Of a DNA stretch of 64,000 bases, positions 6,409 to 61,279 are shown in pieces. Made by a program: the position numbers and the translations under genes. Numbering within the stretch: position 1 is the first letter of the stretch; each line of letters opens with the position of its first letter. The notes under the pieces were generated by a model. That model saw only the letters and a list, made by a program, of their open reading frames with translations, did no database searches and had not been told where the DNA came from. Source of the stretch: Candidatus Heimdallarchaeum aukensis (GTDB taxonomy: Archaea; Asgardarchaeota; Heimdallarchaeia; Heimdallarchaeales; Heimdallarchaeaceae); contig CP084166.1 of the NCBI GenBank assembly GCA_021513695.1, positions 192,001 through 256,000 on the forward strand. The letters run 5' to 3'.

Positions 6409-9393
6409 CTACTTCCATATTATTTTTTTATTGACTTTGAAGATTTTATTCTGTTTTTCTCTTTCCTGAGTTATATTTTCTTTTACAATTTCTCCAAGAG
6501 CAACTATCCTGTTCCAAATAACAACTAATTGACTAATTTCATCTGTTTTTAAAAATGAAAGACCTATAACTATTAATTGTTTTAATGCTTTTTCGTTTAT
6601 TTTTTGATTGTTTTTAATTATTGTTTCATCTTCTTTTAATTCTTTAATCGAGATTCCAATATTAGCATTTTGAAGCATGAGCATGGAATCTAATACCGTT
6701 TCTACTTTTGGATTGATTCTTGGTAACAATAGTCGAAAATAATTACCTATTCTTTGGCTAAATGTAACATATTTTATTTCTTCACTGATTAAGTTCAATG
6801 CGTCATTTTTCTTCTTCAGGGCTATTTTATACTCATTTAATAAAATTAAACTTTGAAATACATCAGATAGTAATTCTGTGAAAAGTTTCTTTTCAAAATC
6901 AATGTATCCCTTACGGAAAAACCTTTTTTCATTATTCTTATATTTTATAACTCCATAACTATCGTTCACTACAGGAATGATAAAAGTTCTATCTTCAAAT
7001 TTTAAGTCATAAGATAATAATTCAACGTTGTCATATTTTTCTCCAATTTTCCACTGCTCATAAGTTTTTTCTCTTTGCAACGCCTTATTTATCATGATTT
7101 GGTTAAATTTACTGATATCTTTTGCTATCTCACTTATATCTTCAGAGATTGAAGGAAAAATATGTCCTATTCCTTTTTCTATTATTCCATCTTCTGACAA
7201 TCCATAAAAGTGTTCATGTTTTCGTTGTATATTAAAAAAGGTGCTAAGACCGAAAGGTAAACTAGGCTCAATTACAGCTATATCCCATATGTTGCTTATT
7301 TTTTTGTCATCTGTTTCATCTACTCTATATGCTCTTCCTTTAGTTTGAATAACAGTTTGATAAGCAGATACTGAAGTTAAATCAATAAGTGTATTTAGTT
7401 TAACAGAGTCCCACCCTTCTCCTAATATGTTTCTTGGCCCAATCAGACATTTAGTTATCCCCTTCTCAAGTAAATAAGTAAAAAGAAGAGTGTATATTCC
7501 TGTTCTCCAATCAAATCCCTCTCCTATAATTTGGACAATTTTCTCGTTTTCTGTTCTTTTTATTGACAATTTAAAATCAAATTTGAAATTCTCTTTCCAT
7601 TTTTCACTTTCTTTTAGTATTTGATTAGCTATGTCTCTATCTGTAAGTATTGATGAAGAAGAAATGGAAACTGGATCTAACTGGTTGGTTTTAGTATTTG
7701 AAATAAGCTTTTCTAAGATACTTAACGACAGATTTTCTGTAGTAAAATCATAAATTATTGCTGAACGTAATTTATCCTTTAAATATGAGAATTCATACTC
7801 TAGAATCTCAACAATAGCATTTATTTTTGATTTACTTGAATTAAGAAAACTAAAAGTTACTTCTCTCTCTTTCATTAAATTATCTACATTCTCTAGTTTC
7901 TCAAAAAATCGACCTAATTCGTTATAATAATTTAAAGCTTTTTTAGAATTGAATTTCTGTTTTCTAAGATAATTCCAATAATAGGCGTGAAGAATAATAA
8001 ATAATTCATTTAATGTAAATTTTTCTTGATCAATTGCTTCTTGATTTTCAAAAATCAGATAAATTTTGTTTACTAAATCATCATTCTTGTATCGTTTTAT
8101 TATGTTTAGATGATTATTTTCATATTCTTCTTTAAGAAATTCAATAGGGTCTTTTAGATTTTTAGATTTTAATGAAGAAAAGAGCTTTCTCAAAGGTTTG
8201 AATTTTTTTTCTATTTCCTTTCTTTCTTCCTCTTGAGGATAGACAAAGTATAACAAATCTTGATAAGGGGCTATGTTTTTTTGTTTTACCGCTGCTGGAG
8301 TAGGTATTTCGATATCAACAGAACCAAAAAGTAATTCGTATATTCCTACTTCTTCATCCTCGACATTCACATCAGTTGGAGGAGTTGCAGTTAAACCCAA
8401 AATGAATGGGATGTTAAATTCTTCAATAAGATAGTTTACAATATATGCCCAAATTGATGTAAGATGATGACACTCATCTAAGATTATTAGACCTATTCCT
8501 TTGTTTTTTAGGGTGTCAATTATCTCTAATGTGTTTTTGTGTAGAATGTCTTTAATCTTTATATCTGAAAAATTAAACTCTCCTTTTATTATCTTATGCC
8601 TTATTTTGTTGATATATTCATTTATTTTTGCTTTATACTCTTCATAATTACTTTTTTTTAAAGATTCAATAAATTCTTTATTTTCATTTTTTTCTTTTAA
8701 CCACATTTTTTCAGCAAAATGCTGTAACATCTCTTCTTCTTGAGAATAAACAGAAAAACGTTGGTAGGTCATTACTGTAATTGGAGCTCTTGATTTAGGG
8801 TCTGTATTTCCAATCATCGTGTTAATGATATTGTTTTCTTTGTCAAGAAACAATTTAATTTTATCTATCCATTGGTCCTGAGTAGAAAAATTTGGTGTTA
8901 GCACTAGAGTATTTTTTGCTATTTGTTTTGCTATTTCAAGACCTACAATAGTTTTTCCTGAACCAGGAGGAGAAACAACATAAAACTTCCTTTCTACTGT
9001 GCTAATTTTTTGTTCAAATTTTTCTAAAATAAGTTTTTGAGATTGCCAAAATTCTCCTCGAAAATACATGTTTGTTAATAAAGAAGGATCAATTTGTCCA
9101 TCTCTGTCTAAATCAAATCTGTATTCACGGAAAGAATTTATTGAAATTTTGATAAAATTATTTATTTTCTCTACTTTTTTACAGTGGGGACAATATTCAT
9201 TTATTTTATACCATTGCTCTAAATGTTCAGAATGAAAAAGACTTCTACAATAAGGGCATAGATAGACTATATCTTCTTTATCAAAAGGTGTAAAGCATAT
9301 CTCACATTTAACAATTTCAGCTCTGCAATTTTCACAGAAATTCCAATCTAACTCAATTTTTGAGTTACAGTTTGTACAACTGTAATGATTCAT
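6409..9393 (-). CDS. Superfamily-2 (DExH/ResIII-like) helicase with N-terminal multi-Cys zinc-ribbon module
   Basis: The N-terminus carries repeated C-x2-C pairs (CTNC, CENC, CEIC, CPYC, CPHC). Walker A is VVSPPGSGKT. Motif II is ILDECHH, motif III is LTATPP and motif VI is QTKGRAYR. A long insert lies between the RecA lobes. Confidence 0.7.
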   Translation of the reverse strand: MNHYSCTNCNSKIELDWNFCENCRAEIVKCEICFTPFDKEDIVYLCPYCRSLFHSEHLEQWYKINEYCPHCKKVEKINNFIKISINSFREYRFDLDRDGQIDPSLLTNMYFRGEFWQSQKLILEKFEQKISTVERKFYVVSPPGSGKTIVGLEIAKQIAKNTLVLTPNFSTQDQWIDKIKLFLDKENNIINTMIGNTDPKSRAPITVMTYQRFSVYSQEEEMLQHFAEKMWLKEKNENKEFIESLKKSNYEEYKAKINEYINKIRHKIIKGEFNFSDIKIKDILHKNTLEIIDTLKNKGIGLIILDECHHLTSIWAYIVNYLIEEFNIPFILGLTATPPTDVNVEDEEVGIYELLFGSVDIEIPTPAAVKQKNIAPYQDLLYFVYPQEEERKEIEKKFKPLRKLFSSLKSKNLKDPIEFLKEEYENNHLNIIKRYKNDDLVNKIYLIFENQEAIDQEKFTLNELFIILHAYYWNYLRKQKFNSKKALNYYNELGRFFEKLENVDNLMKEREVTFSFLNSSKSKINAIVEILEYEFSYLKDKLRSAIIYDFTTENLSLSILEKLISNTKTNQLDPVSISSSSILTDRDIANQILKESEKWKENFKFDFKLSIKRTENEKIVQIIGEGFDWRTGIYTLLFTYLLEKGITKCLIGPRNILGEGWDSVKLNTLIDLTSVSAYQTVIQTKGRAYRVDETDDKKISNIWDIAVIEPSLPFGLSTFFNIQRKHEHFYGLSEDGIIEKGIGHIFPSISEDISEIAKDISKFNQIMINKALQREKTYEQWKIGEKYDNVELLSYDLKFEDRTFIIPVVNDSYGVIKYKNNEKRFFRKGYIDFEKKLFTELLSDVFQSLILLNEYKIALKKKNDALNLISEEIKYVTFSQRIGNYFRLLLPRINPKVETVLDSMLMLQNANIGISIKELKEDETIIKNNQKINEKALKQLIVIGLSFLKTDEISQLVVIWNRIVALGEIVKENITQEREKQNKIFKVNKKIIWK

Positions 9394-31170: not shown

Positions 31171-31650
31171 TTGACAGAAGAAAATTCAAACCCTTTTTCT
31201 TTTTCTTGTTTTACAAAACCAGAACACACTGCTTTTCTTTGTTTTGGAAATTTAGATAGAAGTGATGACGCTATAGGTCTTCTTATAGCTCGAGATTTAA
31301 AAAACCTTTTTCCACACGTTTTTAGTGAAGAATTCGACGACCCCATTGGCGAACTACTAATGATTCTTGAAGATGAAAGTATAGAGTGCATAACTGTAAT
31401 TGATGCATGTGATCTAAAAGCTGAAAATGGAAGTGTAATTGTATCTTCTAATATTAAAGTTGCAGAAAGTCGTTTGAGTACACATACTATACCTATAAAG
31501 CAATTGATAGAACTGATCCACAACGAAGGAAAAGAATTTGTTTTTATTGGTGTTCAAGTTTATAATGTAGAATTTATGGGAGAAATGAGTGAAGAAGTAT
31601 TAAAAGCTAAAGAAAAAATCCTTTCTTGGTTTGTTAAAGAAAATCAATGA
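31171..31650 (+). CDS. hycI: Hydrogenase maturation endopeptidase (HycI/HybD family)
   Basis: LCFGNLDRSDDAIGLLIA matches the protease family N-terminus (GN.L..DDG.G). The gene lies directly downstream of the large subunit. Confidence 0.7.
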   Translation: MTEENSNPFSFSCFTKPEHTAFLCFGNLDRSDDAIGLLIARDLKNLFPHVFSEEFDDPIGELLMILEDESIECITVIDACDLKAENGSVIVSSNIKVAESRLSTHTIPIKQLIELIHNEGKEFVFIGVQVYNVEFMGEMSEEVLKAKEKILSWFVKENQ

Positions 31651-32980
31651 GTTCTCTCATTTTTGAATAAGCATCTATTCCTTTTCTTGTAATTGAATAA
31701 TATTTTTTGTTTTTCCCTTTTATTTTTGAAGAAATCAGATTCTTTTCTTCAAGCTCATTGAGATGTTGGTATATTGATTGAAGCGATTTTCTTTTTCCTA
31801 GAGCTTTCCAGATAGCGTAACCGTGATTTGCTTTCTTTCTGGAAATCAGATCCAATATTTCAAACTTTGTTGTAGATTTTTCAGAAAGACCCCATACTGC
31901 TTTTTTAATTCCTCTTAATTTAGAAGCAAATATGTTTAACGCATTCAAGCCTGACCCAGAAAGAAGAGCAACTGTAGAATCGACGTTGATTCCTTCATTT
32001 TCTAATAATTGATTAGCAGCAACAACAACAGAAGCTGAAGCAGGTTCAATAAATAAGCCTTCTTTTTTTGCTAAAAGAAGGGCTTGATCTATCATTTTTT
32101 CTCCCTCTATTTCAATTTCTTTTCCTTTAGTTTTTAGAAGAATATCGCCGATTTTTTGAGAAAGTGTCTGAGGTGTAGGAATCTTTAGAGATTCTGCATA
32201 AAAGTCTAAATCTTCTTGTTTCAAAGACACAGCATAAAATGAGGGGATTTTTTCTATCCAACCAGATGCTAAAGCATCTTCAAAACCCCTATATATAGAA
32301 TAGAAAAGAGAGCCAGAACCTTTTGGAATAATAATATTTTCAATTGTTTCAGATAAGTGAGCGATTTCTAAACCTATAGTTTTCTGACCTTCAACAGTCA
32401 AAATATTGTCAGATGAAGCGAAAAAAACTCCACCCTTTTGTAGTTCTCTCCCCTTCTCAATTGCTTCTTCAGTAGTAGAACCATGTTCGACTACTTTACT
32501 TCCATAAACTTTCATCTGTTCAATTTTTGATAATTCTAAATTCGAAGGTACAATGTTAGTGAGTTCTAAACCTGCTAATGCAGAGTAAGCTGATAAACTT
32601 ATGCCTAAAGAACCAGAACTAGAGCACACCAGTTTAGAAATAGAGGAAGAAGAAAGATAAGAAGCAATAAGTGAAGATGCACGGTCTCTGAATGATCCAG
32701 TTGGATTTCTAAATTCAAGTTTTAGTTTTAATCCTTTTAGTGATGAAATGTTGTTAATTAATAAAATAGGTGTATTTCCTTCAGACAATGTATAAACCTT
32801 CTCTAGTGAAGGTAAAAAAGGACTGAATGACCATATATTTGATATTTTTATCTTACTTTTTTCAGGTCCTTGAATAGGGTCTATGTTTTGGATAGAACCA
32901 CAAAAAGGGCAAAGAAGATCAAAATTAATAGATAATGTATCTTTCTTACATTTGATACAATACGGTTTTTTCTTCCACAT
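31634..32980 (-). CDS. Threonine-synthase-like (fold-type II PLP) domain protein with N-terminal zinc ribbon and C-terminal PadR-type winged helix; the PLP-lysine is replaced by Arg
   Basis: The N-terminus has CIKCKK...CPFCG. The core reads LSEGNTPIL...FRNPTGSFRDRAS. The Lys position is codon AGA at 32687-32689 on the minus strand. The C-terminus FEILDLISRKKANHGYAIWKAL...KKYYSITRKGIDA is a PadR pattern. Confidence 0.7.
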   Translation of the reverse strand: MWKKKPYCIKCKKDTLSINFDLLCPFCGSIQNIDPIQGPEKSKIKISNIWSFSPFLPSLEKVYTLSEGNTPILLINNISSLKGLKLKLEFRNPTGSFRDRASSLIASYLSSSSISKLVCSSSGSLGISLSAYSALAGLELTNIVPSNLELSKIEQMKVYGSKVVEHGSTTEEAIEKGRELQKGGVFFASSDNILTVEGQKTIGLEIAHLSETIENIIIPKGSGSLFYSIYRGFEDALASGWIEKIPSFYAVSLKQEDLDFYAESLKIPTPQTLSQKIGDILLKTKGKEIEIEGEKMIDQALLLAKKEGLFIEPASASVVVAANQLLENEGINVDSTVALLSGSGLNALNIFASKLRGIKKAVWGLSEKSTTKFEILDLISRKKANHGYAIWKALGKRKSLQSIYQHLNELEEKNLISSKIKGKNKKYYSITRKGIDAYSKMRELIDFL

Positions 32981-35161: not shown

Positions 35162-36112
35162 TTACTTTGTTAGAAACTCAAGTTTCTCGATATTAATAAA
35201 ACCAAAACTCACTAGATTTGAAAATAAAGAGAGAAAATAGGGGAAAGAAATAATTAATTCTTCATTCTTAAAAATCTCATAAATATCGTAAATCGTATGA
35301 TTAATATTTCCACAGCATTCTTTTAGCATTTTTATGAAAAGTTTGTAAACTTTAACTGGTGTCATCGGGAAAATCTCATCAAAATTTTTTTCGAATATAT
35401 CAATATTTGTTTTGTAACTGTGTGGAATAGCGATTCTAGATTGTAATAACAAATCCAACTCTAGCAATGAAATATCATCAGGGGGATTTTCAATAATTCT
35501 ATCAATGTAAGCAGGGATAAAAGCTAGTGAAAAATTGTCTAAATAAACAAGCTGTTCTATTAAATCGTTAATTTTCTTAATCCACAGTTGAGCTATTTTA
35601 GTATTTAGTGATGAATTGATGCAGATCTTAGTTTCTATGAAGTTGAGAATAGAGTATTCAACAATTTCATTGCACTGTTTATCAGTATTATTGGAATTCT
35701 CTTCAAGATAGTATATTTCTTCTCTTAATTTGTCTATTATCTTAAGAGAGTATAGGTTTACTCCTCCGTAATCAATCGTTGGGGTTAATATTTGCTGATT
35801 ATATTTTGAAATTGATGGTATTGGAATCCCGAATTCTACATCTTGTTCTCCTATTATTGAAGGTGTTTTATCAATATCCGTACGCAAAAGAACATGAGAT
35901 CTAACTGAATTGTTAGTGTCTATAAAGAGTTTTGTAGCTCTTAATGAGCTATCTCCACACTCATGTACATCTACAAGTTCAAAGATATCTTTACCTTCGT
36001 TCAAAAAAGGTAAAATCGTCTTTGGAATGAAAATTATTCTTTGTTTTTGACATGCTGTACATAAATACTCTATTGAAACTCGAGATTCAGCTCTTATTGT
36101 CAATTTCTTCAA
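35162..36112 (-). CDS. Hypothetical protein with N-terminal C-x2-C...H-x-C module; paralogue of 48127..48990
   Basis: It shares YLCTACQKQRI...DVHECG with YQCNICLKQRI...DVHKCKG in the other copy. The C-terminus is wHTH-like (...LFSNLVSFGFINIEKL). Confidence 0.4.
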   Translation of the reverse strand: MKKLTIRAESRVSIEYLCTACQKQRIIFIPKTILPFLNEGKDIFELVDVHECGDSSLRATKLFIDTNNSVRSHVLLRTDIDKTPSIIGEQDVEFGIPIPSISKYNQQILTPTIDYGGVNLYSLKIIDKLREEIYYLEENSNNTDKQCNEIVEYSILNFIETKICINSSLNTKIAQLWIKKINDLIEQLVYLDNFSLAFIPAYIDRIIENPPDDISLLELDLLLQSRIAIPHSYKTNIDIFEKNFDEIFPMTPVKVYKLFIKMLKECCGNINHTIYDIYEIFKNEELIISFPYFLSLFSNLVSFGFINIEKLEFLTK

Positions 36113-36507: not shown

Positions 36508-37092
36508 GTGGTACAAATGAACTCATTGAATCAAAACATCTTTAAAATCGTACTCCTTGGAGAAGGAGCTGTAGGAAAAACCTCTTTAAAACGAACTTAT
36601 ATGGGTGAAGAATTCGTAGAAGGATATAAAATGACAGTAGGTGCTGATTTCGCAGTCAAGAAACTGGAGGTAGATTTCTACAAAATAACTTTGCAGATAT
36701 GGGATCTAGCAGGGCAACCTAGGTTTGATGCGGTAAGAGAGGCATACTATAGAGGAGCTAAAGGAGCTTTACTAGTTTTTGATATCTCTAGACCAGAAAC
36801 ATACGAAATACTACCTAAATGGCTAAATGAGTTAATAAAAAACAGTGGTGGACGAAAGGTACCAATAATTCTAATTGGAAATAAATCTGACTTGCGCGAA
36901 AAACATGATCAAACTGTTCCAATTAACTATGCTGAAGATTATGCTGAAAAGCTAACAATGTGGTCTGGATATCACGTGTCTTACGTTGAAACAAGTGCAA
37001 AAACGGGAGAAAATGTAGAAAAAGCCTTTAGTGAATTAGCTCTTCAACTTGTACGTAATTTAGAAAAATTAAAAGTTGAACTAGGGATATAA
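36508..37092 (+). CDS. Rab/Ras-like small GTPase
   Basis: G1 is GEGAVGKT. G2 is YKMTVGADF. G3 is WDLAGQPRF. G4 is GNKSDL. G5 is ETSAK. There is no C-terminal prenylation motif. Confidence 0.85.
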   Translation: MVQMNSLNQNIFKIVLLGEGAVGKTSLKRTYMGEEFVEGYKMTVGADFAVKKLEVDFYKITLQIWDLAGQPRFDAVREAYYRGAKGALLVFDISRPETYEILPKWLNELIKNSGGRKVPIILIGNKSDLREKHDQTVPINYAEDYAEKLTMWSGYHVSYVETSAKTGENVEKAFSELALQLVRNLEKLKVELGI

Positions 37093-37096
37093 AAAA

Positions 37097-37867
37097 TTAC
37101 TTTCTAAAATATGGTATTTTTACATAAGGTAATTTAATAATAAATTTGTCTTTTGAATAAACAATTATTCCACCAAGTCCTTTAACACAATGTTCGATAA
37201 AATCTTGTTCTATTGACTTTACTTTTTCTCTTTTACCTAAAGTTTCAACCAATTTAAACTTATCATAAAGATTAATTTTAAATACAAAATCCAGCATGTT
37301 CTGCTCATTACTGTATATAATTATAATCTCTGAATTTTTTTGTTGTTGCAATAAGGATTGAAACATAAGATATTCAAATAGGATATCGAGATTTTCATCT
37401 TTAACTATACATAAATCAGCAGAACCTTCAGGAAAAATAATGTCTGGAGATTGTTTAGTATAATGAGTGAGAAGATAGTGAGAAGTTAATTCTTTTATGA
37501 ACTCATGCAAGTTAACAAATGTCTTTTTGTACAATCTTCTAGATAATAACGTTATCAACTGTCTAGTAAATTTAATTTTAAAAATACTCTCTTCTAAAAG
37601 TAGAAGTGATTCATTATTCTCAAAACTTCCTTCTTTCATTGCTGATAAAATACTTAAATTATATACTGTATGGAGAAGATTTCCCATGTCATGGGTTAAA
37701 ATTTCAACTATTTTTGTTGTTCTTTGGTTTTCAGTCTCTATTTCTCGAGTCTTAATTTTTAGATTTTTACTTAACTGATAATTCCAAAGAAATAGAGATA
37801 TGATTAATATAAGTACTAAAGCGAATATAGAGACTACAGCGATTAGAAAAATTGCATAGCTATTCAA
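37097..37867 (-). CDS. Membrane-anchored histidine-kinase-like protein (H-box present; ATPase domain degenerate)
   Basis: An N-terminal TM is followed by ILTHDMGNLLHTV (H-box). The C-terminus has VKGLGG (G2-like). No clear DxGxG was found. Confidence 0.4.
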   Translation of the reverse strand: MNSYAIFLIAVVSIFALVLILIISLFLWNYQLSKNLKIKTREIETENQRTTKIVEILTHDMGNLLHTVYNLSILSAMKEGSFENNESLLLLEESIFKIKFTRQLITLLSRRLYKKTFVNLHEFIKELTSHYLLTHYTKQSPDIIFPEGSADLCIVKDENLDILFEYLMFQSLLQQQKNSEIIIIYSNEQNMLDFVFKINLYDKFKLVETLGKREKVKSIEQDFIEHCVKGLGGIIVYSKDKFIIKLPYVKIPYFRK

Positions 37868-40885: not shown

Positions 40886-42922
40886 TTACTCAAAATAAAC
40901 TTCTTTGATCTTTGTATCAATATATTCTTTTATTTCTTCATATTCCAATATATCTTCATGAGGATACTCTAATAGCTTTTTTTCAATCAAGACGGCTATT
41001 TCTTCAGTCTTTTTCTTTAGTGCATACGAAAAACGGTCTACGAATAAAGCAATTGTAAATTCACTTTTTCCTAATAAAAGCATTATATATTCAGAGTGTT
41101 CCAAAATTCTTAGCTCTCCTTTCTTTAGTTTTAGAGTTTTGCTTATATTTTTTATAGCATTAATCATTCCAACAATAAGCAACTCATCAGAATGGAAAAT
41201 ATCTCCATAAGAGTAACTATAGAAAGGAACATTTTCAACAATTAATAAGAAATGAAAAAGATGGAAGTTATTTCTACTGCTTCTAATCTCTGAAGTGAGT
41301 AATCCCTTTGTAGTGTATTGTTTTATTAGATTATCTATTTCTAAAGAAAAATCCATAGAAAAGGGAGTTTGTTCGAATTCTGAGTTTGCTTTTGCCTTCT
41401 TTAGTAGTTGATAGATTTGTCTAATATTCTCTTCTTTATAATTTAAATTATGCTTTTTACATATTATTTCCACTCTTTTTAGCAAATCTTCTGAAAGGTG
41501 AAGTTTGTTTGTATATATGTAAACTGTTGCTAATAGCAACATATAATTTACTAATTGATAAAAGGCATTAAGTTCTTTCAATAGAATAATTATTTCTTGA
41601 GAATATAACTCGATTTCCTCTAATATTTTTTGCTTATTAATTTTATTAGTCTCGATTTTAAACATTACAAGATATAATTCAATCAAGTAAAGAAGAGCAT
41701 TTAATGCTTGGGGAAAAAGGTTCAATTCTCTGGCATAATTTATTCCTTTTAGTAAATAATCTCTGGATGAATAGTAATTCATTTTATAAAATTCAAAAAT
41801 GCCTTTAGTTGTAATATAGGTAGTATAATAAGCGTTAAGTTTAGGCTCATCTAATTTAAATGTCTTTGAATATTTTTCTAAATACAATCCTGCTTTATCA
41901 AAATTGTTAGATATAGCGTATGTCTCTGCTGCTAAAGGATAAATATAATCAAGAGCAATATTGTATTGTTCACTAATTTTAATAGCCTGTTCTAGAAATT
42001 TAAGGGATTCAGGAATGTTATTTAACAGTCTGTAAGCATAGATTATTTCTGCATTTATCATGGCTATATTTCTTAATTCTTTCTTTTTTTCCATAAAAAT
42101 AAGAATGTTAAATAAGTGTTTTAAACCCTCTTTGAAAAATCCTTGTTTGAGCAAAACTACTGCATAATTTGCTTTAGCAACTATTTTTCCTCTTTCAATT
42201 TTTTCAGAACTGAATAATTTAATTGCCTCTGCATAGGCAACCTTACTTTCTATTATTGATCCAGAATAAAGAAGGCAATTTCCTTGCATATTTAGTAAAT
42301 ATGCGTGCAAGTAAACATCTGAAATATCATGTTTTAGGATTTTTTGTAATGCTTTCTCTGAAATGTAAATTCCTTTAATATATTGATGTTTCATGTAGTT
42401 GAACAAGGTTTCTGTATAAAGATACATTATTTCGTAAAATCTACAAAGTTTTTTATCTTTTTCAAATTCACTAACTTGGTCCAATATCTCTAATGCTTTA
42501 TTCAAATATTCTTCTGCTTGCTCAAGTTCGTTTATAACAGAATAGTATTCTACTACATGAAGAAAAAAATCAAAAAGATAGATAATTTGAGTATTGATTT
42601 TACCTTTATCCAGTTTTTCTATTATTTCTTCGATTTTTGGATAATCTCCTTGTATTGCTACAATACGCGAAAAAGAAGCAAAAATTTCAAAAGATTTAAA
42701 CTTCAGATAAAACTCTGATAATTTTTCTCTATCATCATAAATTAATAGAATTTTAGCAATTAAAGCTTGATAATCTGAAGGAACTGAAGAAGATAGAATT
42801 TCATCCCAATACTTTAGGATTGTATTGTAGAAATCAAAATAAGTGTTAAACAACTTTGGATGCATTTTTCCATGTAAGAAATCTTCTTCTAAAAACCTCT
42901 CATATCGCTTTATTTGCATCAT
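40886..42922 (-). CDS. Large TPR-repeat protein with C-terminal roadblock/LC7-like domain (paralogue 1)
   Basis: The 678 aa product has TPR-like amphipathic repeats through the central part. The C-terminus reads FHLFHFLLIVENVPFYSYSYGD...LIVGMINAIKNISKTL...FTIALFVDRF. Confidence 0.5.
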   Translation of the reverse strand: MMQIKRYERFLEEDFLHGKMHPKLFNTYFDFYNTILKYWDEILSSSVPSDYQALIAKILLIYDDREKLSEFYLKFKSFEIFASFSRIVAIQGDYPKIEEIIEKLDKGKINTQIIYLFDFFLHVVEYYSVINELEQAEEYLNKALEILDQVSEFEKDKKLCRFYEIMYLYTETLFNYMKHQYIKGIYISEKALQKILKHDISDVYLHAYLLNMQGNCLLYSGSIIESKVAYAEAIKLFSSEKIERGKIVAKANYAVVLLKQGFFKEGLKHLFNILIFMEKKKELRNIAMINAEIIYAYRLLNNIPESLKFLEQAIKISEQYNIALDYIYPLAAETYAISNNFDKAGLYLEKYSKTFKLDEPKLNAYYTTYITTKGIFEFYKMNYYSSRDYLLKGINYARELNLFPQALNALLYLIELYLVMFKIETNKINKQKILEEIELYSQEIIILLKELNAFYQLVNYMLLLATVYIYTNKLHLSEDLLKRVEIICKKHNLNYKEENIRQIYQLLKKAKANSEFEQTPFSMDFSLEIDNLIKQYTTKGLLTSEIRSSRNNFHLFHFLLIVENVPFYSYSYGDIFHSDELLIVGMINAIKNISKTLKLKKGELRILEHSEYIMLLLGKSEFTIALFVDRFSYALKKKTEEIAVLIEKKLLEYPHEDILEYEEIKEYIDTKIKEVYFE

Positions 42923-43046
42923 TTTATTTCATTATTACTTTATCATAGTATATCTCAAGAGTCGTTAAAAGTTTATCTGATTTTCAAAAATTGATTGATT
43001 CTCGGCGACTCAAAAATAATAAAATAGCTAGAGTTCAAAAGAATAA

Positions 43047-45095
43047 CTACTTTTCAAATATTTCAATTCTTAAATTATCTATTTCTTGTTTTATAGGAGT
43101 TAAAATCTTATTGGTAAAATAGTCAATCTGCAAAACTTCTGTTTGTTGCAATAAACTCTCAATTTTGTTAGCAAATTGAATCAAACGTTCTTTTACAGAA
43201 TAATAGAACTCATCAATGAAGAGAACAACTGAATATTTCTTTCGTTTTTCAATCATTACTATAAAATCAGTAAACTCGATAAGCTTAAAGATTCCATGTT
43301 TTTTTGTCAGAGAGTCACTGAACGATTCAATAGCTTTGAATAATCCAGATAGAAGAAGTTGTTTTTCTTCAATTTTTTCTCCTTTAAATTGATGTGAATA
43401 TAATGGTAAACCGTTAAAGTGAATAATTATTAGATTTATTAGGTGATCTTTGTTATATAAATTGAGGTTTACTTCTATGTTCCTAATTTCTGTAGAAGGT
43501 TTCTGTAATGTTTTTGTTATACTATTCAAACTGAATATTTGAAGAGCTTTATCATCTAACTTTTCAGGATTCTGTTCCATTTTTTTCAGTGTTTGCATTT
43601 CACGTAAAATTTCTTTAAGTTGAGTATTCATATTGTAGTTTTTACATAACTCTACAGTTAAAGAGTAAATATGGTTCGCAAGATCGAATTTCTCCTGAAG
43701 TGCATAAATCCTAGCTAAAAGTAATTGAAAATCTATTTTTAAGTAAATGTTGCTGTGTTTTCGTAATATTAGGGATATCTCTTCGCAAATTTCCTCTAAT
43801 TCACTTATAATTTCTTCAGAATACTGTATTTGTAATTTCTTAATCAAGTAAATTGAATGATATTTCAGTCCAGTTAGATAAAGGGGAAAATTTTTGATAC
43901 TTTTAGCTATTTCTATTCCTTTTTCCAGGAAAATAGATGCATTGTATAAATTTCCTCTTATTAATTCGTAATATCCCTTTAAAGAATAAAATGCACCATT
44001 ATGGAAACTGATGTTTTCTTTATCTTTTAAGATAATATTTTCAAATGTTTTCAAAAGTTTTTCAACAATATCAAATTTTTGAATTTGTATTGCGAACTCG
44101 ATTGATGATATTAATACTTCGTCGTCATAGACTAATCTTGTTTCTAAGAGTTTTATATTTTCTTTAAGATATTCTACTGCTTTTTCTGTTTTACCAATTT
44201 CTATTAGGCATTGCATAATCTCTCTATTTATTAAAGCTACATTTCTCAACTCATTGTTTTCAGAGAAAAATTCTTTGATTTTTATTAACTTAGGTAGAGC
44301 TTCTTTATGTTTTCCGAGTTTGATATCTAAAGAAGCTATATTTCCTTCTGTTACAATTTTTCCTCGATTATTATTCATTTCATTAAACAAATTAAATGAT
44401 TTATAGTAATTTGACTTCGATTGTTTAAGCAACCCTTTAAACATGTAAGCGTTACCTAGAGTGTTGTAAGTAACTGCTAAAAGAAATTCATCTGTTTTTT
44501 CAATATTTTCTAATATTTTTTTGGCTTCACTAAAGTAAAAAATAGCTTTATCTGACTCTCGATATCTAAAAACAGTGAAACCCAGAGTATAGAATAAATT
44601 TGCTTGAAGAAAAAGAAACAATTGACCTTCACTCTTATTTAAGAGAAGTTTGCATTGTGAAATTAGCTGAGAAGCTAATTCATTATTGAAAGTTGTAGCA
44701 AATATTTTTATTTCAGAGTTGTAGAAGTAAAATCTAGGAAAAATTGAAGATTTAGAAATAGATGCTAGATCAGTTTCTGCAATATATGTTTGTGCTTTAA
44801 TTAATCCTCTTTTTAATCGTAATATGTTGAGTAAAGGGCCTAAAGTTTCGATTGAATTATATTTTTTATAAAGAAATTCTAATTTATCATATTCTCCATA
44901 CATATTAAACAAATAACTAATTAAAAATTGAACATCAGGGGGTATGAAAATGTCTCTTATCTTTTTCCAATAATTTTGAACATTTCTGTAAAGATTAAAC
45001 TCTTTCACTTCTGTTATAGTTTTTAACTTTAGATATTTTTTTATCCAATTTTGATCATCAGAGTTTAATAACTGTAAATACCAATCCAAAACCAT
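43047..45095 (-). CDS. Large TPR-repeat protein with C-terminal roadblock/LC7-like domain (paralogue 2)
   Basis: The 682 aa product has the same architecture as paralogue 1. The C-terminus LIIIHFNGLPLYSHQF...LLLSGLFKAIESFSDSL...YSVVLFIDEF fits the roadblock alpha-beta-beta pattern. Confidence 0.5.
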   Translation of the reverse strand: MVLDWYLQLLNSDDQNWIKKYLKLKTITEVKEFNLYRNVQNYWKKIRDIFIPPDVQFLISYLFNMYGEYDKLEFLYKKYNSIETLGPLLNILRLKRGLIKAQTYIAETDLASISKSSIFPRFYFYNSEIKIFATTFNNELASQLISQCKLLLNKSEGQLFLFLQANLFYTLGFTVFRYRESDKAIFYFSEAKKILENIEKTDEFLLAVTYNTLGNAYMFKGLLKQSKSNYYKSFNLFNEMNNNRGKIVTEGNIASLDIKLGKHKEALPKLIKIKEFFSENNELRNVALINREIMQCLIEIGKTEKAVEYLKENIKLLETRLVYDDEVLISSIEFAIQIQKFDIVEKLLKTFENIILKDKENISFHNGAFYSLKGYYELIRGNLYNASIFLEKGIEIAKSIKNFPLYLTGLKYHSIYLIKKLQIQYSEEIISELEEICEEISLILRKHSNIYLKIDFQLLLARIYALQEKFDLANHIYSLTVELCKNYNMNTQLKEILREMQTLKKMEQNPEKLDDKALQIFSLNSITKTLQKPSTEIRNIEVNLNLYNKDHLINLIIIHFNGLPLYSHQFKGEKIEEKQLLLSGLFKAIESFSDSLTKKHGIFKLIEFTDFIVMIEKRKKYSVVLFIDEFYYSVKERLIQFANKIESLLQQTEVLQIDYFTNKILTPIKQEIDNLRIEIFEK

Positions 45096-45104
45096 ATTTT
45101 TCCC

Positions 45105-45800
45105 CTAAGTATATCTATCTTTAGGTCTCCTTTCTGGTATCATTTCAATTTCTTGATTTTTTGTGAAATCATAATCTTTCTTAAAGAATAGAGCACAATA
45201 GCATCTTCCATATTCATTGATATCTTCTTCTGCATAATCACAAGGACAACAAATATCTCTATCAAGCTGAATATTTTCGTTTGTATCTCGACAAGGACAA
45301 TTAAAATAACCTATTCTATTATAATTATCTTTTAGTCCTTGTATTAACATGTCTAAAGTTCCATCGTTATTTGGATGTAACTTCCAATTCTTCTTTTTAG
45401 CTATATTCTGAACATATTTCTTTACTTCTTCAAAAGTTTTTGACTTTTTACTTCTTCCAATACCATGAAAGAGTTTCTCCCATTTCTTTTTGTTAAATCC
45501 CATTTCATATTTTTCTCCGTCAATAACTACGAATGGAAAAGCTATAAACTCCAAATTAAAAGCATGTCTTATTTCTTTTTTGATCTCTTTTTTTTCATTA
45601 TAGTTTATTAGATCTATATCGATAAAATAGTAAGAAATTTTATTATCTTTTAGCCAATTTTTACTTTTTTTACACCATTGACATGTAGAGATAGCAAAGA
45701 GAAAAACTTCAAAATCAGTTGTTGAATCTTCAAATAGCTCTAAATTATAGTTTGGCAAACTCTTAATTTTTTTTGCTATCTTTAAGTTTAGTTTCTCCAT
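45105..45800 (-). CDS. Glutaredoxin-like / ferredoxin:thioredoxin-reductase catalytic-subunit-like fusion
   Basis: The N-terminal half has the CxxC motif CQWC. The C-terminal half reads CPCRDTNENIQLDRDICCPCDYAEEDINEYGRCYCALF, an FTRc-like motif with Tyr in place of the usual His. Confidence 0.6.
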   Translation of the reverse strand: MEKLNLKIAKKIKSLPNYNLELFEDSTTDFEVFLFAISTCQWCKKSKNWLKDNKISYYFIDIDLINYNEKKEIKKEIRHAFNLEFIAFPFVVIDGEKYEMGFNKKKWEKLFHGIGRSKKSKTFEEVKKYVQNIAKKKNWKLHPNNDGTLDMLIQGLKDNYNRIGYFNCPCRDTNENIQLDRDICCPCDYAEEDINEYGRCYCALFFKKDYDFTKNQEIEMIPERRPKDRYT

Positions 45801-48126: not shown

Positions 48127-48990
48127 TTATTTTTTATCTACAAAATTTATGGTTAAGATATTAATTATACCTTTTTCAACTAAATTAGCTAAGATTGCGA
48201 TATATTCACTAAAAGAAAAATTATACTTTAGTTCATTGTATATTAGTAATATGTTGTTTTTATCATTGTTTTTACACTTTTCAATAATAGAAGCTAGATT
48301 TCGACTTTCAACAGTATCAAGGTCATTAAAAATCTCTCCAAATTCAGTGTCTTCTTTTATAGTTTGAGGAATTGAGCAAATACTATTTATTATTAATTCA
48401 AGAGCAAGTTTATCGCTCAAGTTCATCTCGTTCGTTACCTTATCATCTAAAAATTTTAGTACAAGTTCTAAAGCTTTGACATCAATATAGGTTGCTTTAG
48501 AGTAAGCTTCTTCAATTCCAGTTAACCATTTTTTAACTTGTTTTTTCTGAACTTCTTTTTCTGTTAATATTTGAATTTCAAGGAATTGGTCATCAATAAT
48601 TATTTTATCTAAGTCGTTTTTTTTAGTTTGATCAAAAACAAATATCTTATTTCTAATTTTATCGTTTATTTGGAAATAATCAATGTTTCTGATTCTAATA
48701 AGATGATCAGTAATGATTTCAATTTTCGATCTCTCTACTTTTTGAGGAGAAGGAAGAGGAAGTCCAGGAATACTAGATTCATCATTTTCCTTTTTTACTG
48801 GAATCTGTGTCCTTACATTTAAATCAGAATCCACATGAAGTAGAATAGCATTTTCCTTATTACCTTTGCATTTGTGAACATCAATAATATCCATTAAACC
48901 TCTCGTATCTACATTAAAATTTATATTTTCAGGAAGACCCATTATTCTTTGTTTTAAGCAGATGTTACATTGATATTCTATCTTCTTCAT
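48127..48990 (-). CDS. Hypothetical protein, paralogue of 35162..36112 (C-x2-C...H-x-C N-terminus, wHTH-like C-terminus)
   Basis: YQCNICLKQRI...IDVHKCKG; C-terminus ...IAILANLVEKGIINIL. Confidence 0.4.
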   Translation of the reverse strand: MKKIEYQCNICLKQRIMGLPENINFNVDTRGLMDIIDVHKCKGNKENAILLHVDSDLNVRTQIPVKKENDESSIPGLPLPSPQKVERSKIEIITDHLIRIRNIDYFQINDKIRNKIFVFDQTKKNDLDKIIIDDQFLEIQILTEKEVQKKQVKKWLTGIEEAYSKATYIDVKALELVLKFLDDKVTNEMNLSDKLALELIINSICSIPQTIKEDTEFGEIFNDLDTVESRNLASIIEKCKNNDKNNILLIYNELKYNFSFSEYIAILANLVEKGIINILTINFVDKK

Positions 48991-60415: not shown

Positions 60416-61279
60416 ATGATTTTTCTGATCTCTCTTAAAAAAATTCAAAAAAAAAATAAATATCAAGAAGAAGAAAAAAGAACCATGAGCGAAGAAAAAT
60501 CAAAAGTTAAGTCATTCTTTAATCCAATTTCTTTTGTAGTTATTTTGCTAATTTGGAATTGGTTAGGTGGTTATCTACTTGATCTTTTTTCAGTTCCGTC
60601 TCAATGGATAGGGACTTATTATCTAGCAGGAACACTTATTTGGAGTTTAGTTTTTGCTAGAGTAGTCAATAAGAAACTAGAAAATATTGGTGTTACAGTT
60701 AAAGTCAAATTTGATTTAAAGTCTTTATTACTAATTATTTTAGCTGCTTTAATAGGTTCAGTATATTTGCTTTTGTCTGCGATCTACAAGTATTCTTTAC
60801 CTTTGGTTGAAATAAACACAGAAATCATAGTCACACTTATTGTTTTACCTATCTCAATTCTAATACAAGCTTTTTTTGAAGAGATAGCTTGGGCAGGATG
60901 GCTTTATTCAAACTTGAAAATGAGAGAAGAAGTAAAGAACTTGATTATAGGTTTGGTATGGGCTGTCTGGCATGTTCCTTTCTATCTATGGGGAATCAAA
61001 TATTTCACATATACACCCTTGTTATACTCTCTTAATGTCATAGGGATAATCTTATCACGTTTTGTTATTAACTGGTTCAGAAAAGAAATGGACAATGTAT
61101 GGTGGCCAACTTTCTATCATGGAGGAATAAATTTAGGTGGATTTATAATCATAGTATTGTATCCTGGTATCGAAAAAATAGCTGAAGTTATAGTATATTC
61201 AGGGTTAATACGAACAGTTATAATCTTGATTTTACAGATTGTAATAACTTTTATTGGAAAGAAAAGAGAAAAAGTTTAA
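60416..61279 (+). CDS. CPBP-like membrane protein (second paralogue; motif 1 Arg replaced). The start is probably the internal ATG at about 60486.
   Basis: FFEEIAWAGW, WAVWHVPFY and FYHGGINLGG are present in multi-TM context. Confidence 0.5.
   Translation: MIFLISLKKIQKKNKYQEEEKRTMSEEKSKVKSFFNPISFVVILLIWNWLGGYLLDLFSVPSQWIGTYYLAGTLIWSLVFARVVNKKLENIGVTVKVKFDLKSLLLIILAALIGSVYLLLSAIYKYSLPLVEINTEIIVTLIVLPISILIQAFFEEIAWAGWLYSNLKMREEVKNLIIGLVWAVWHVPFYLWGIKYFTYTPLLYSLNVIGIILSRFVINWFRKEMDNVWWPTFYHGGINLGGFIIIVLYPGIEKIAEVIVYSGLIRTVIILILQIVITFIGKKREKV

Follow-up and report, generated by a model that had tools for sequence, protein, structure and literature searches.

Two adjacent, diverged TPR proteins of Candidatus Heimdallarchaeum aukensis with predicted C-terminal longin domains

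The gene pair and its TPR arms

The window analyzed here is a 64-kb stretch of the genome of Candidatus Heimdallarchaeum aukensis. Two adjacent genes are found on its minus strand, each opening with an ATG codon. Gene B (43047..45095) encodes a protein of 682 residues and is followed by gene A (40886..42922), which encodes a protein of 678 residues. The spacer between them (124 bp; 42923..43046) is T-rich past the stop codon of B and A/T-rich ahead of the start codon of A. A glutaredoxin/FTR-like gene lies upstream of the pair. The ORF list agrees with the tandem, same-strand arrangement described in an earlier, sequence-only reading of this DNA, and all of the peptide strings quoted there are found in the translations of A and B.

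Using BLASTP, the two proteins were determined to be 25% identical, with 49% positives across 659 residues (E 3e-46). These values exclude a chance match and identify A and B as collinear paralogues from end to end, strongly diverged and of shared architecture as had been proposed. Protein B shares 99% identity with a hypothetical protein (NCBI) from a MAG of Candidatus Heimdallarchaeaceae and 82% with P0002. For protein A, the identity amounts to 87% with P0003 and 35% with the A-like gene product of genome L002. A full-length query of an index of 5.8 billion proteins returned only two close orthologues, the search having been swamped by TPR words.

Both proteins had been proposed to begin with a helical region containing TPR repeats, and this was confirmed by Pfam model TPR_12 and by structure prediction. 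In the structure model of A, residues 1-534 (41321..42922, minus strand) are folded into about 27 helices, and residues 157-320 form the regular 17-residue helix hairpins that are typical of TPRs. The corresponding all-alpha region of B covers residues ~1-530 (43506..45095, minus strand; boundary approximate), as judged from Pfam and from its collinearity with the modeled TPR superhelix of A. Residues 206-267 of B match TPR_12 at 36.5 bits, above the cut-off of 30.1, and A matches the same model at 25.4 bits. The above-cut-off match in B and the helix-hairpin superhelix together identify these arms as TPR. A reading of the pair as a defense system was dropped, as the one PADLOC hit (in B) was weak and to a generic TPR, and NCBIfam returned nothing.

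Fold and sequence family of the C-terminal domain

The sequence-only reading had assigned to each protein a C-terminal segment of ~110 aa with the alpha-beta-beta-alpha-beta topology of a roadblock domain. The segment is real, conserved, and an alpha/beta domain of the roadblock/longin superfamily, but it is about 125-130 residues long, and the roadblock topology is refuted in the strict sense. The domain comprises residues 552-682 of B (43050..43442, minus strand) and residues 555-677 of A (40892..41260, minus strand). Two independent models predict the order beta-beta-alpha-beta-beta-beta-alpha-alpha, which is the topology of a longin domain. The model of the B domain consists of strands 4-11 and 16-21, helix 28-48, strands 57-59, 64-69, and 73-79, and helices 84-104 and 114-133, and the order of elements in A is identical. 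According to these models, the C-terminal domains of A and B have the longin fold. The longin is the sister fold of the roadblock, and the eukaryotic TRAPP and Mon1-Ccz1 complexes use longins to control small GTPases.

The closest structural relatives of the two modeled domains are the longins of TRAPP (Bet5/Trs23) and Mon1-Ccz1. Superposition with Bet5 covers 126-143 residues with a TMq of 0.76, a full-length match to solved longin domains, whereas the superpositions with roadblock domains cover only 80-105 residues with a TMq of 0.42-0.57. Roadblock/LC7 domains (MglB, LAMTOR2/3, and the Asgard roadblocks; PF03259) carry an N-terminal helix, in contrast to the two C-terminal helices predicted for A and B; the two arrangements are circularly permuted, and only the core aligns. 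The N-terminal helix is absent from the domain in A and B, and the stand-alone members of the family start directly at strand beta1. In addition, neither Robl_LC7 (PF03259) nor any other Pfam model matched the C-termini of A and B at E<=10. A strict roadblock assignment is ruled out on topology, and it is very unlikely that A and B function through an MglB-like roadblock/LC7 domain, as an MglB-type GAP or platform.

An exhaustive HMMER search found the domain in 140 clusters (50% identity). Among 55 members scanned against Pfam, matches were obtained to Fuz_longin_1 (24 members, best 1e-6), Intu_longin_1 (10), Robl_LC7 (10, all weak, with a best E of 2.9e-4), and Sybindin (6). The Fuz_longin_1 matches of up to 1e-6 were obtained with isolated domains; for full-length relatives, the scores shown are 17.4-25.6 bits, under the gathering cut-off of 26.1 bits. 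A and B themselves have no match to the Pfam longin models, Fuz_longin_1 (PF19036) included. No Pfam or NCBIfam model was found to cover the domain, the NCBIfam scan of A and B being empty. By these sequence comparisons, the domain represents a previously unmodeled family for which the nearest Pfam entry, matched below threshold, is Fuz_longin_1, the first longin of MON1/FUZ/HPS1. The top PDB profile match is longin domain 1 of MON1A, in which GKPVYS is aligned with the GLPLYS loop.

The loop motif of B is G-L-P-x-Y-S and that of A is N-V-P-F-Y-S, in which the near-invariant glycine of the family has been substituted. In the B clade, a phenylalanine is found where the conserved beta3-beta4 histidine of the family stands. 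This complementary loss of conserved residues is in keeping with a division of roles between two subunits.

Distribution, architectures, and gene neighborhoods

All of the named family members are from Asgard archaea. The most frequent architecture is TPR-longin, with a homologous TPR arm in about 66 of the 140 clusters, and thus the fusion seen at this locus is widespread and is not a singleton. The same module is also found C-terminal to receiver, LRR, Ig-like, FrhB, and multi-pass membrane (5-12 TM) domains, and in P0045 an Arf-like GTPase is fused directly to it. There is no further copy of the longin domain elsewhere in the 64-kb window.

Tandem pairs in the order B-then-A are found in three genomes (the window, L001, and L002), another tandem pair is found in L004, and a single copy is found in several Heimdallarchaeial genomes (L003, L005), so not all members of the family can require a heterodimer. 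A and B fall into separate clades with 100% bootstrap each, the B clade being composed of B, P0002, and P0004. The duplication that gave rise to them is ancient, and their adjacency has been retained in three or more genomes.

The sequence-only reading did not recognize this arrangement from characterized proteins, which holds for the databases and literature that we searched. We found no description of a TPR-longin architecture in Asgard archaea in the literature texts searched, although the family may already be listed as an unnamed asCOG in the supplementary tables of Liu et al. The family and its tandem pairs are absent from the searched text of Liu et al. 2021 (10.1101/2020.10.19.343400), Tran et al. 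2024 (PMC10933270), and Traffic 2025 (PMC12290439). The Asgard longin proteins described in these three papers share with our family the phylum and the fold. Like our family, they also occur in multidomain architectures restricted to particular lineages, with GTPase-longin and two-component-longin fusions among them.

The only GTPase gene near the pair in the window, a Ras-like gene at 36508..37092, is on the strand opposite to A and B and is 3.8 kb away. Of nine loci checked for a small-GTPase neighbor, one was found only in L001, the close relative of the window, which shares this linkage; there is none beside P0004, P0007, P0009, P0010, P0016, and P0061 (outside the lineage of the window) or beside P0036. 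The missing synteny is weak evidence, since Asgard GTPase genes are reported to lie, in general, outside operons with their roadblock/longin genes (PMC10933270).

It is conceivable, although we regard it as rather doubtful, that the longin domain is simply a dimerization or ligand-sensing module, used as GAF/PAS-like folds are, on a TPR signaling or assembly scaffold with no small GTPase as client. The lack of a conserved GTPase neighborhood at the loci checked and the promiscuity of the module, whose many fusion partners are equally compatible with a generic dimerization or sensor role, are consistent with such an arrangement. So is the TPR arm, which resembles the peptide-sensing Rap/NprR/PlcR, MalT, and STAND proteins. 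Together with LGN/Pins and the APC/C TPR subunits, these sensors (MalT through its domain III, STAND as PH0952) are the nearest known counterparts of the arms, and all of them differ from A and B in having no longin domain. However, in both structure and sequence, the nearest relatives of the domain are without exception longins from GTPase platforms or coats, an Arf-like GTPase is fused to the longin within the family itself, and the argument from synteny is weak for the reason given above.

A candidate platform for small GTPases

Asgard genomes are rich in both small GTPases and roadblock/longin proteins. Because the two kinds of gene are not joined in operons, hardly any regulator has been matched to its GTPase. 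To our knowledge, essentially all of the characterized longin and roadblock modules pair up. We propose, on balanced chances, that A and B are paralogous cytosolic TPR-longin scaffolds in which a longin dimer would serve as a platform regulating a small GTPase and the TPR arms would bind a ligand. By analogy to Bet5-Trs23, Mon1-Ccz1, and FLCN-FNIP, the C-terminal domains would pair, probably as an A-B heterodimer, and a small Ras/Arf/Rag-like GTPase would dock on the dimer. The platform would then control either the nucleotide state of the GTPase (as a GEF or GAP) or its localization, and a peptide or protein bound by the TPR arms would recruit or gate the platform. The conserved tandem pairs, the separate clades, and the complementary substitutions are indirect support for the proposed heterodimer, and a conserved, diverged paralogue pair in some Heimdallarchaeia would mirror the heterodimeric logic of the eukaryotic longin GEFs and GAPs. 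The earlier suggestion that a scaffold is coupled to a GTPase-regulatory module survives the change of fold, since longin domains do the same job as roadblock domains. Longin/roadblock dimers have been described as GTPase platforms, and GTPase-longin fusions have been reported from Asgard archaea (PMC10933270; bioRxiv 10.1101/2020.10.19.343400).

The proteins to which A and B are most similar differ from them in architecture. MON1/FUZ/HPS1 (PF19036) and their partners CCZ1/INTU/HPS4 (PF19031) are Rab GEFs with three consecutive longin domains per subunit, whereas A and B have a single longin that follows an N-terminal TPR superhelix (all-alpha over residues 1-534). The TRAPP proteins Bet5/TRAPPC1 and Trs23/TRAPPC4 (Sybindin, PF04099; the matches in 6 of the 55 members being weak) are small, separate subunits acting together with the Bet3 family, and no Bet3/V4R gene was found among the window ORFs scanned. 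A more specific proposal is speculative, and we think it unlikely: the A-B longin heterodimer would be a bona fide GEF (or GAP) acting on a Ras/Rab/Arf-like GTPase of Heimdallarchaeia, would be gated by a TPR-bound ligand, and would be related as a single-longin archaeal form to the first longins of the Mon1-Ccz1 type.

A and B could instead be longin-type GAP subunits for Rag/Arf-like GTPases, similar to FLCN-FNIP, NPRL2-NPRL3, or SMCR8-C9orf72. The heterodimeric paralogue logic would fit, as would the Gly-x-Pro motif ahead of beta2 and the mostly basic residue that opens beta3 (K/R in 92 of 144 sequences). The receiver-longin architecture within the family also parallels that of Asgard proteins in which Liu et al. 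describe an NPRL2-like longin joined to two-component domains (bioRxiv 10.1101/2020.10.19.343400). We nevertheless consider such a GAP improbable. It is highly improbable that the pair is a primitive adaptor or coat, in which an alpha-solenoid and a longin, resembling an AP/COPI large subunit and sigma/mu (or zeta/delta-COP), are combined in one chain.

With its MON1/FUZ-like sequence signature and its predicted TRAPP/Mon1-Ccz1-like structure, the TPR-longin family provides a concrete and abundant candidate regulator. If A and B do form a GEF/GAP platform, then dozens of unannotated Asgard TPR-longin proteins would constitute a major unrecognized class of small-GTPase regulators. The members are named "hypothetical", "tetratricopeptide repeat protein", or "MalT-like TPR region" in the databases, and the assignment of the longin domain corrects a public annotation that labels them as hypothetical or just as TPR proteins.

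Tandem paralogues A and B and their conservation

Genes A (40886..42922, minus strand, 678 aa) and B (43047..45095, minus strand, 682 aa) each start with ATG in the ORF listing and are separated by 124 bp, in a window with a G+C content of ~30%. The sequence-only reading had described them as tandem, diverged paralogues; the coordinates agree, the peptides it quoted were found in the two ORFs, and BLASTP aligns the pair collinearly from about residue 30 onward to the C-terminal end (659 aligned residues, 25% identity, E 3e-46). Judged from this alignment, A and B are true paralogues that have strongly diverged. Protein B shares 99% identity with a hypothetical protein from a Candidatus Heimdallarchaeaceae MAG, which makes the source an Asgard archaeon.

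Homologues over the full length (E<1e-70) were obtained only among Heimdallarchaeia-type sequences. The B-then-A tandem is present in a close relative (locus L001), with identities of 82% (B) and 87% (A), and in a far more distant genome (L002), where P0004 has 35% identity to B, and the gene after it has 35% identity to A and only 24% to B. The A and B clades each have a bootstrap value of 100% in a neighbour-joining tree, with all A-like sequences forming the sister group of the B clade. The tree indicates that the duplication is older than these lineages and that the adjacency has been retained. In another genome, P0009 and P0011 form a different tandem, with 38 bp between them, and a single copy is found in two genomes, L003 and L005 (3.3-Mb contig, Ca. 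H. endolithica). A loop glycine that is near-invariant (134 of 145 sequences) has been lost in A, and the B clade has phenylalanine at a position that is histidine in 72 of 146 sequences.

The C-terminal longin domain

The C-terminal ~150 residues of both proteins gave no Pfam match, even at E<=10. A profile built from the two C-termini was used in an exhaustive HMMER search, which found the domain at E<=1e-3 in 140 cluster representatives among 1.84 billion. Its signature is L-x-I-x3-G-L-P-x-Y-S-x2-F ... D-x2-L-x-S-G-x3-A-I-x2-F-x2-E ... G-x-L-[KR]-x-I-x-H. When 55 members were scanned singly against Pfam, sub-threshold matches were obtained to Fuz_longin_1, the first longin domain of FUZ/MON1/HPS1 (24 members, best 1e-6), Intu_longin_1 (10), Robl_LC7 (10, best 2.9e-4), Sybindin (6), and Longin (1). 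The top profile match among PDB sequences was longin domain 1 of MON1A (E 0.017; 'SEAGKPVYS' versus 'SESGLPLYS'), followed by TRAPPC1, Trs23, and Bet5, with an Odinarchaeal roadblock lower, all of them sub-threshold. By these profile comparisons, the domain is a distinct family without a model of its own, within the longin/roadblock superfamily and nearest to the MON1/FUZ-type longins.

Residues 549-682 of B were modelled confidently with AlphaFold from a 55-sequence alignment (pLDDT 88.7, pTM 0.82), which gave the order beta1, beta2, alpha1, beta3, beta4, beta5, alpha2, alpha3. The order is identical for residues 555-677 in the full-length model of A. In the roadblock topology, a helix precedes beta1. 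No such helix is found in A or B, and the stand-alone members P0068, P0094, P0088, and P0133 start directly at beta1; a strict roadblock was rejected on these grounds. The Foldseek E-values are alike for the two classes, and the coverage is 80-105 columns for roadblocks (TMq 0.42-0.57) and 143 columns for Bet5 (TMq 0.76). Structural scores of 9.1, 9.6, and 8.8 were obtained for FLCN, FNIP2, and NPRL3, respectively. The element order beginning at beta1 and the greater coverage of Bet5 show that the predicted fold is a longin, and the earlier assignment of a roadblock-like C-terminus stands at the superfamily level but not as a fold.

TPR arms and other architectures

The TPR repeats proposed for the N-terminal region were borne out by the TPR_12 match in B (36.5 bits versus the Pfam cut-off of 30.1) and by the helical run in A, which has sub-threshold Pfam matches to TPR_12, TPR_MalT, TPR_1, and TPR_2. 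In the AlphaFold model of full-length A (19-sequence family alignment, pLDDT 85.1, pTM 0.82), residues 1-534 form ~27 helices, with a very regular series of 17-residue helices and 3-residue turns at 157-320.

The sequence-only reading did not recognise the TPR fusion from characterised proteins; A and B are not its only cases. An iterated HMM based on the first 540 residues of the two proteins, searched only against the regions preceding the longin in the 140 proteins, detected a homologous arm in ~66 representatives at E<=1e-4 (71 matches once the two query proteins and their three close orthologues are counted) and recruited 61 of the 74 sequences of at least 450 aa. Separate Pfam scans confirmed TPRs in P0004, P0007, P0016, P0020, P0024, P0033, P0044, P0061, and P0066. 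Together, these matches make TPR plus C-terminal longin the dominant architecture of the family. An ESCRT survey mentions longin and TPR together in Vps28-C proteins (PMC10936438).

Other representatives combine the longin with 5-12 transmembrane segments (~35 representatives, with 10-12 in P0023, P0103, and P0106, from Baldrarchaeia and others), two receiver-longin repeats (P0120, P0055, P0040, P0104), LRR (P0098), Ig-like (P0080, P0136), or FrhB (P0079) regions, and, in the single case of P0045, an Arf-like GTPase (Pfam Arf 1e-17); stand-alone longins are also present. The GTPase, receiver, and transmembrane fusions suggest that the family serves Asgard signalling as a general output or adaptor module. 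Every named member is Asgard (Heimdallarchaeota, Heimdallarchaeaceae, Ca. Heimdallarchaeum endolithica, Hodarchaeales, Hodarchaeota, Hermodarchaeota, Promethearchaeota, Odinarchaeota, and Baldrarchaeia), and the database labels go no further than hypothetical, TPR, or 'MalT-like TPR region' protein. Very many roadblock/longin proteins with lineage-specific multidomain architectures are already known from Asgard genomes, including 130 roadblock-superfamily asCOGs and fusions of longins to GTPases and two-component proteins (bioRxiv 10.1101/2020.10.19.343400). Our literature search, which lay outside the asCOG supplementary tables, found no account of the TPR-longin family, its MON1/FUZ-like signature, or the conserved tandem pair.

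Small GTPases and the gene neighbourhood

Characterised longin and roadblock domains pair as homodimers or heterodimers into platforms for small GTPases, as in TRAPP, Mon1-Ccz1, FLCN-FNIP, GATOR1, Ragulator, MglB, and SRX-SRbeta (PMC10933270, PMC12290439). Because the closest relatives in structure and sequence belong to this type, one family member is fused to an Arf-GTPase, and the diverged tandem paralogues have been retained, we infer that the A and B longins would pair as a platform that acts on a small GTPase. The TPR arm would be a scaffold that binds a ligand or partner, and GEF activity, GAP activity, or mere recruitment are all candidates. The domain motif is closer to the G-K-P of MON1, and the GAP longins lie further off in structure. 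The promiscuity of the module across domain partners leaves room for a generic role in dimerisation or sensing.

For a paired GTPase platform, a possible client is the Ras/Rab-like small GTPase at 36508..37092 (plus strand; Pfam Ras 1e-48, Roc 4e-30), which is encoded opposite to A at a distance of 3.8 kb. Outside the window, this linkage is found only in the close relative L001, and no GTPase was found in seven other family contexts examined, in agreement with the remark that Asgard GTPases generally lie outside the operons of roadblock/longin genes (PMC10933270). The TPR-longin pair is a good candidate for experiments on archaeal GTPase regulation and no categorical surprise. The GTPase gene is abutted by 37097..37867 (minus strand), whose 256-aa product has a membrane helix at its N-terminus and no family. 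The protein of 60416..61279 (plus strand), an Rce1-like member of the CAAX prenyl endopeptidase family (Pfam 3.6e-10), may be relevant to the processing of a lipidated GTPase.

The gene at 45105..45800 (minus strand), a fusion of glutaredoxin and the ferredoxin-thioredoxin-reductase catalytic chain, stops 9 bp short of the B start, with nitroreductase and peroxiredoxin genes upstream. Co-transcription of this redox cluster with B is therefore possible; the linkage is absent from L002. The TPR-longin region is bracketed, in a layout shared with L001, by a second diverged paralogue pair (35162..36112, 316 aa, and 48127..48990, 287 aa, both minus strand; 25% identity, E 6e-23). Both proteins carry a C-x2-C ... 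H-x-C motif at the N-terminus and match no Pfam or NCBIfam family, apart from a faint match to DUF7505. Elsewhere in the window, the 994-aa protein of 6409..9393 (minus strand) has a RING finger (zf-RING_2, 4.8e-6) at its N-terminus joined to a ResIII/DEAD helicase core, a eukaryote-like arrangement. The gene at 31634..32980 (minus strand) encodes an unusual enzyme-regulator fusion, in which a PLP-dependent enzyme (PALP, 7e-49) is flanked by a zinc-ribbon-like CxxC...CxxC motif at the N-terminus and a PadR-type winged helix at the C-terminus.
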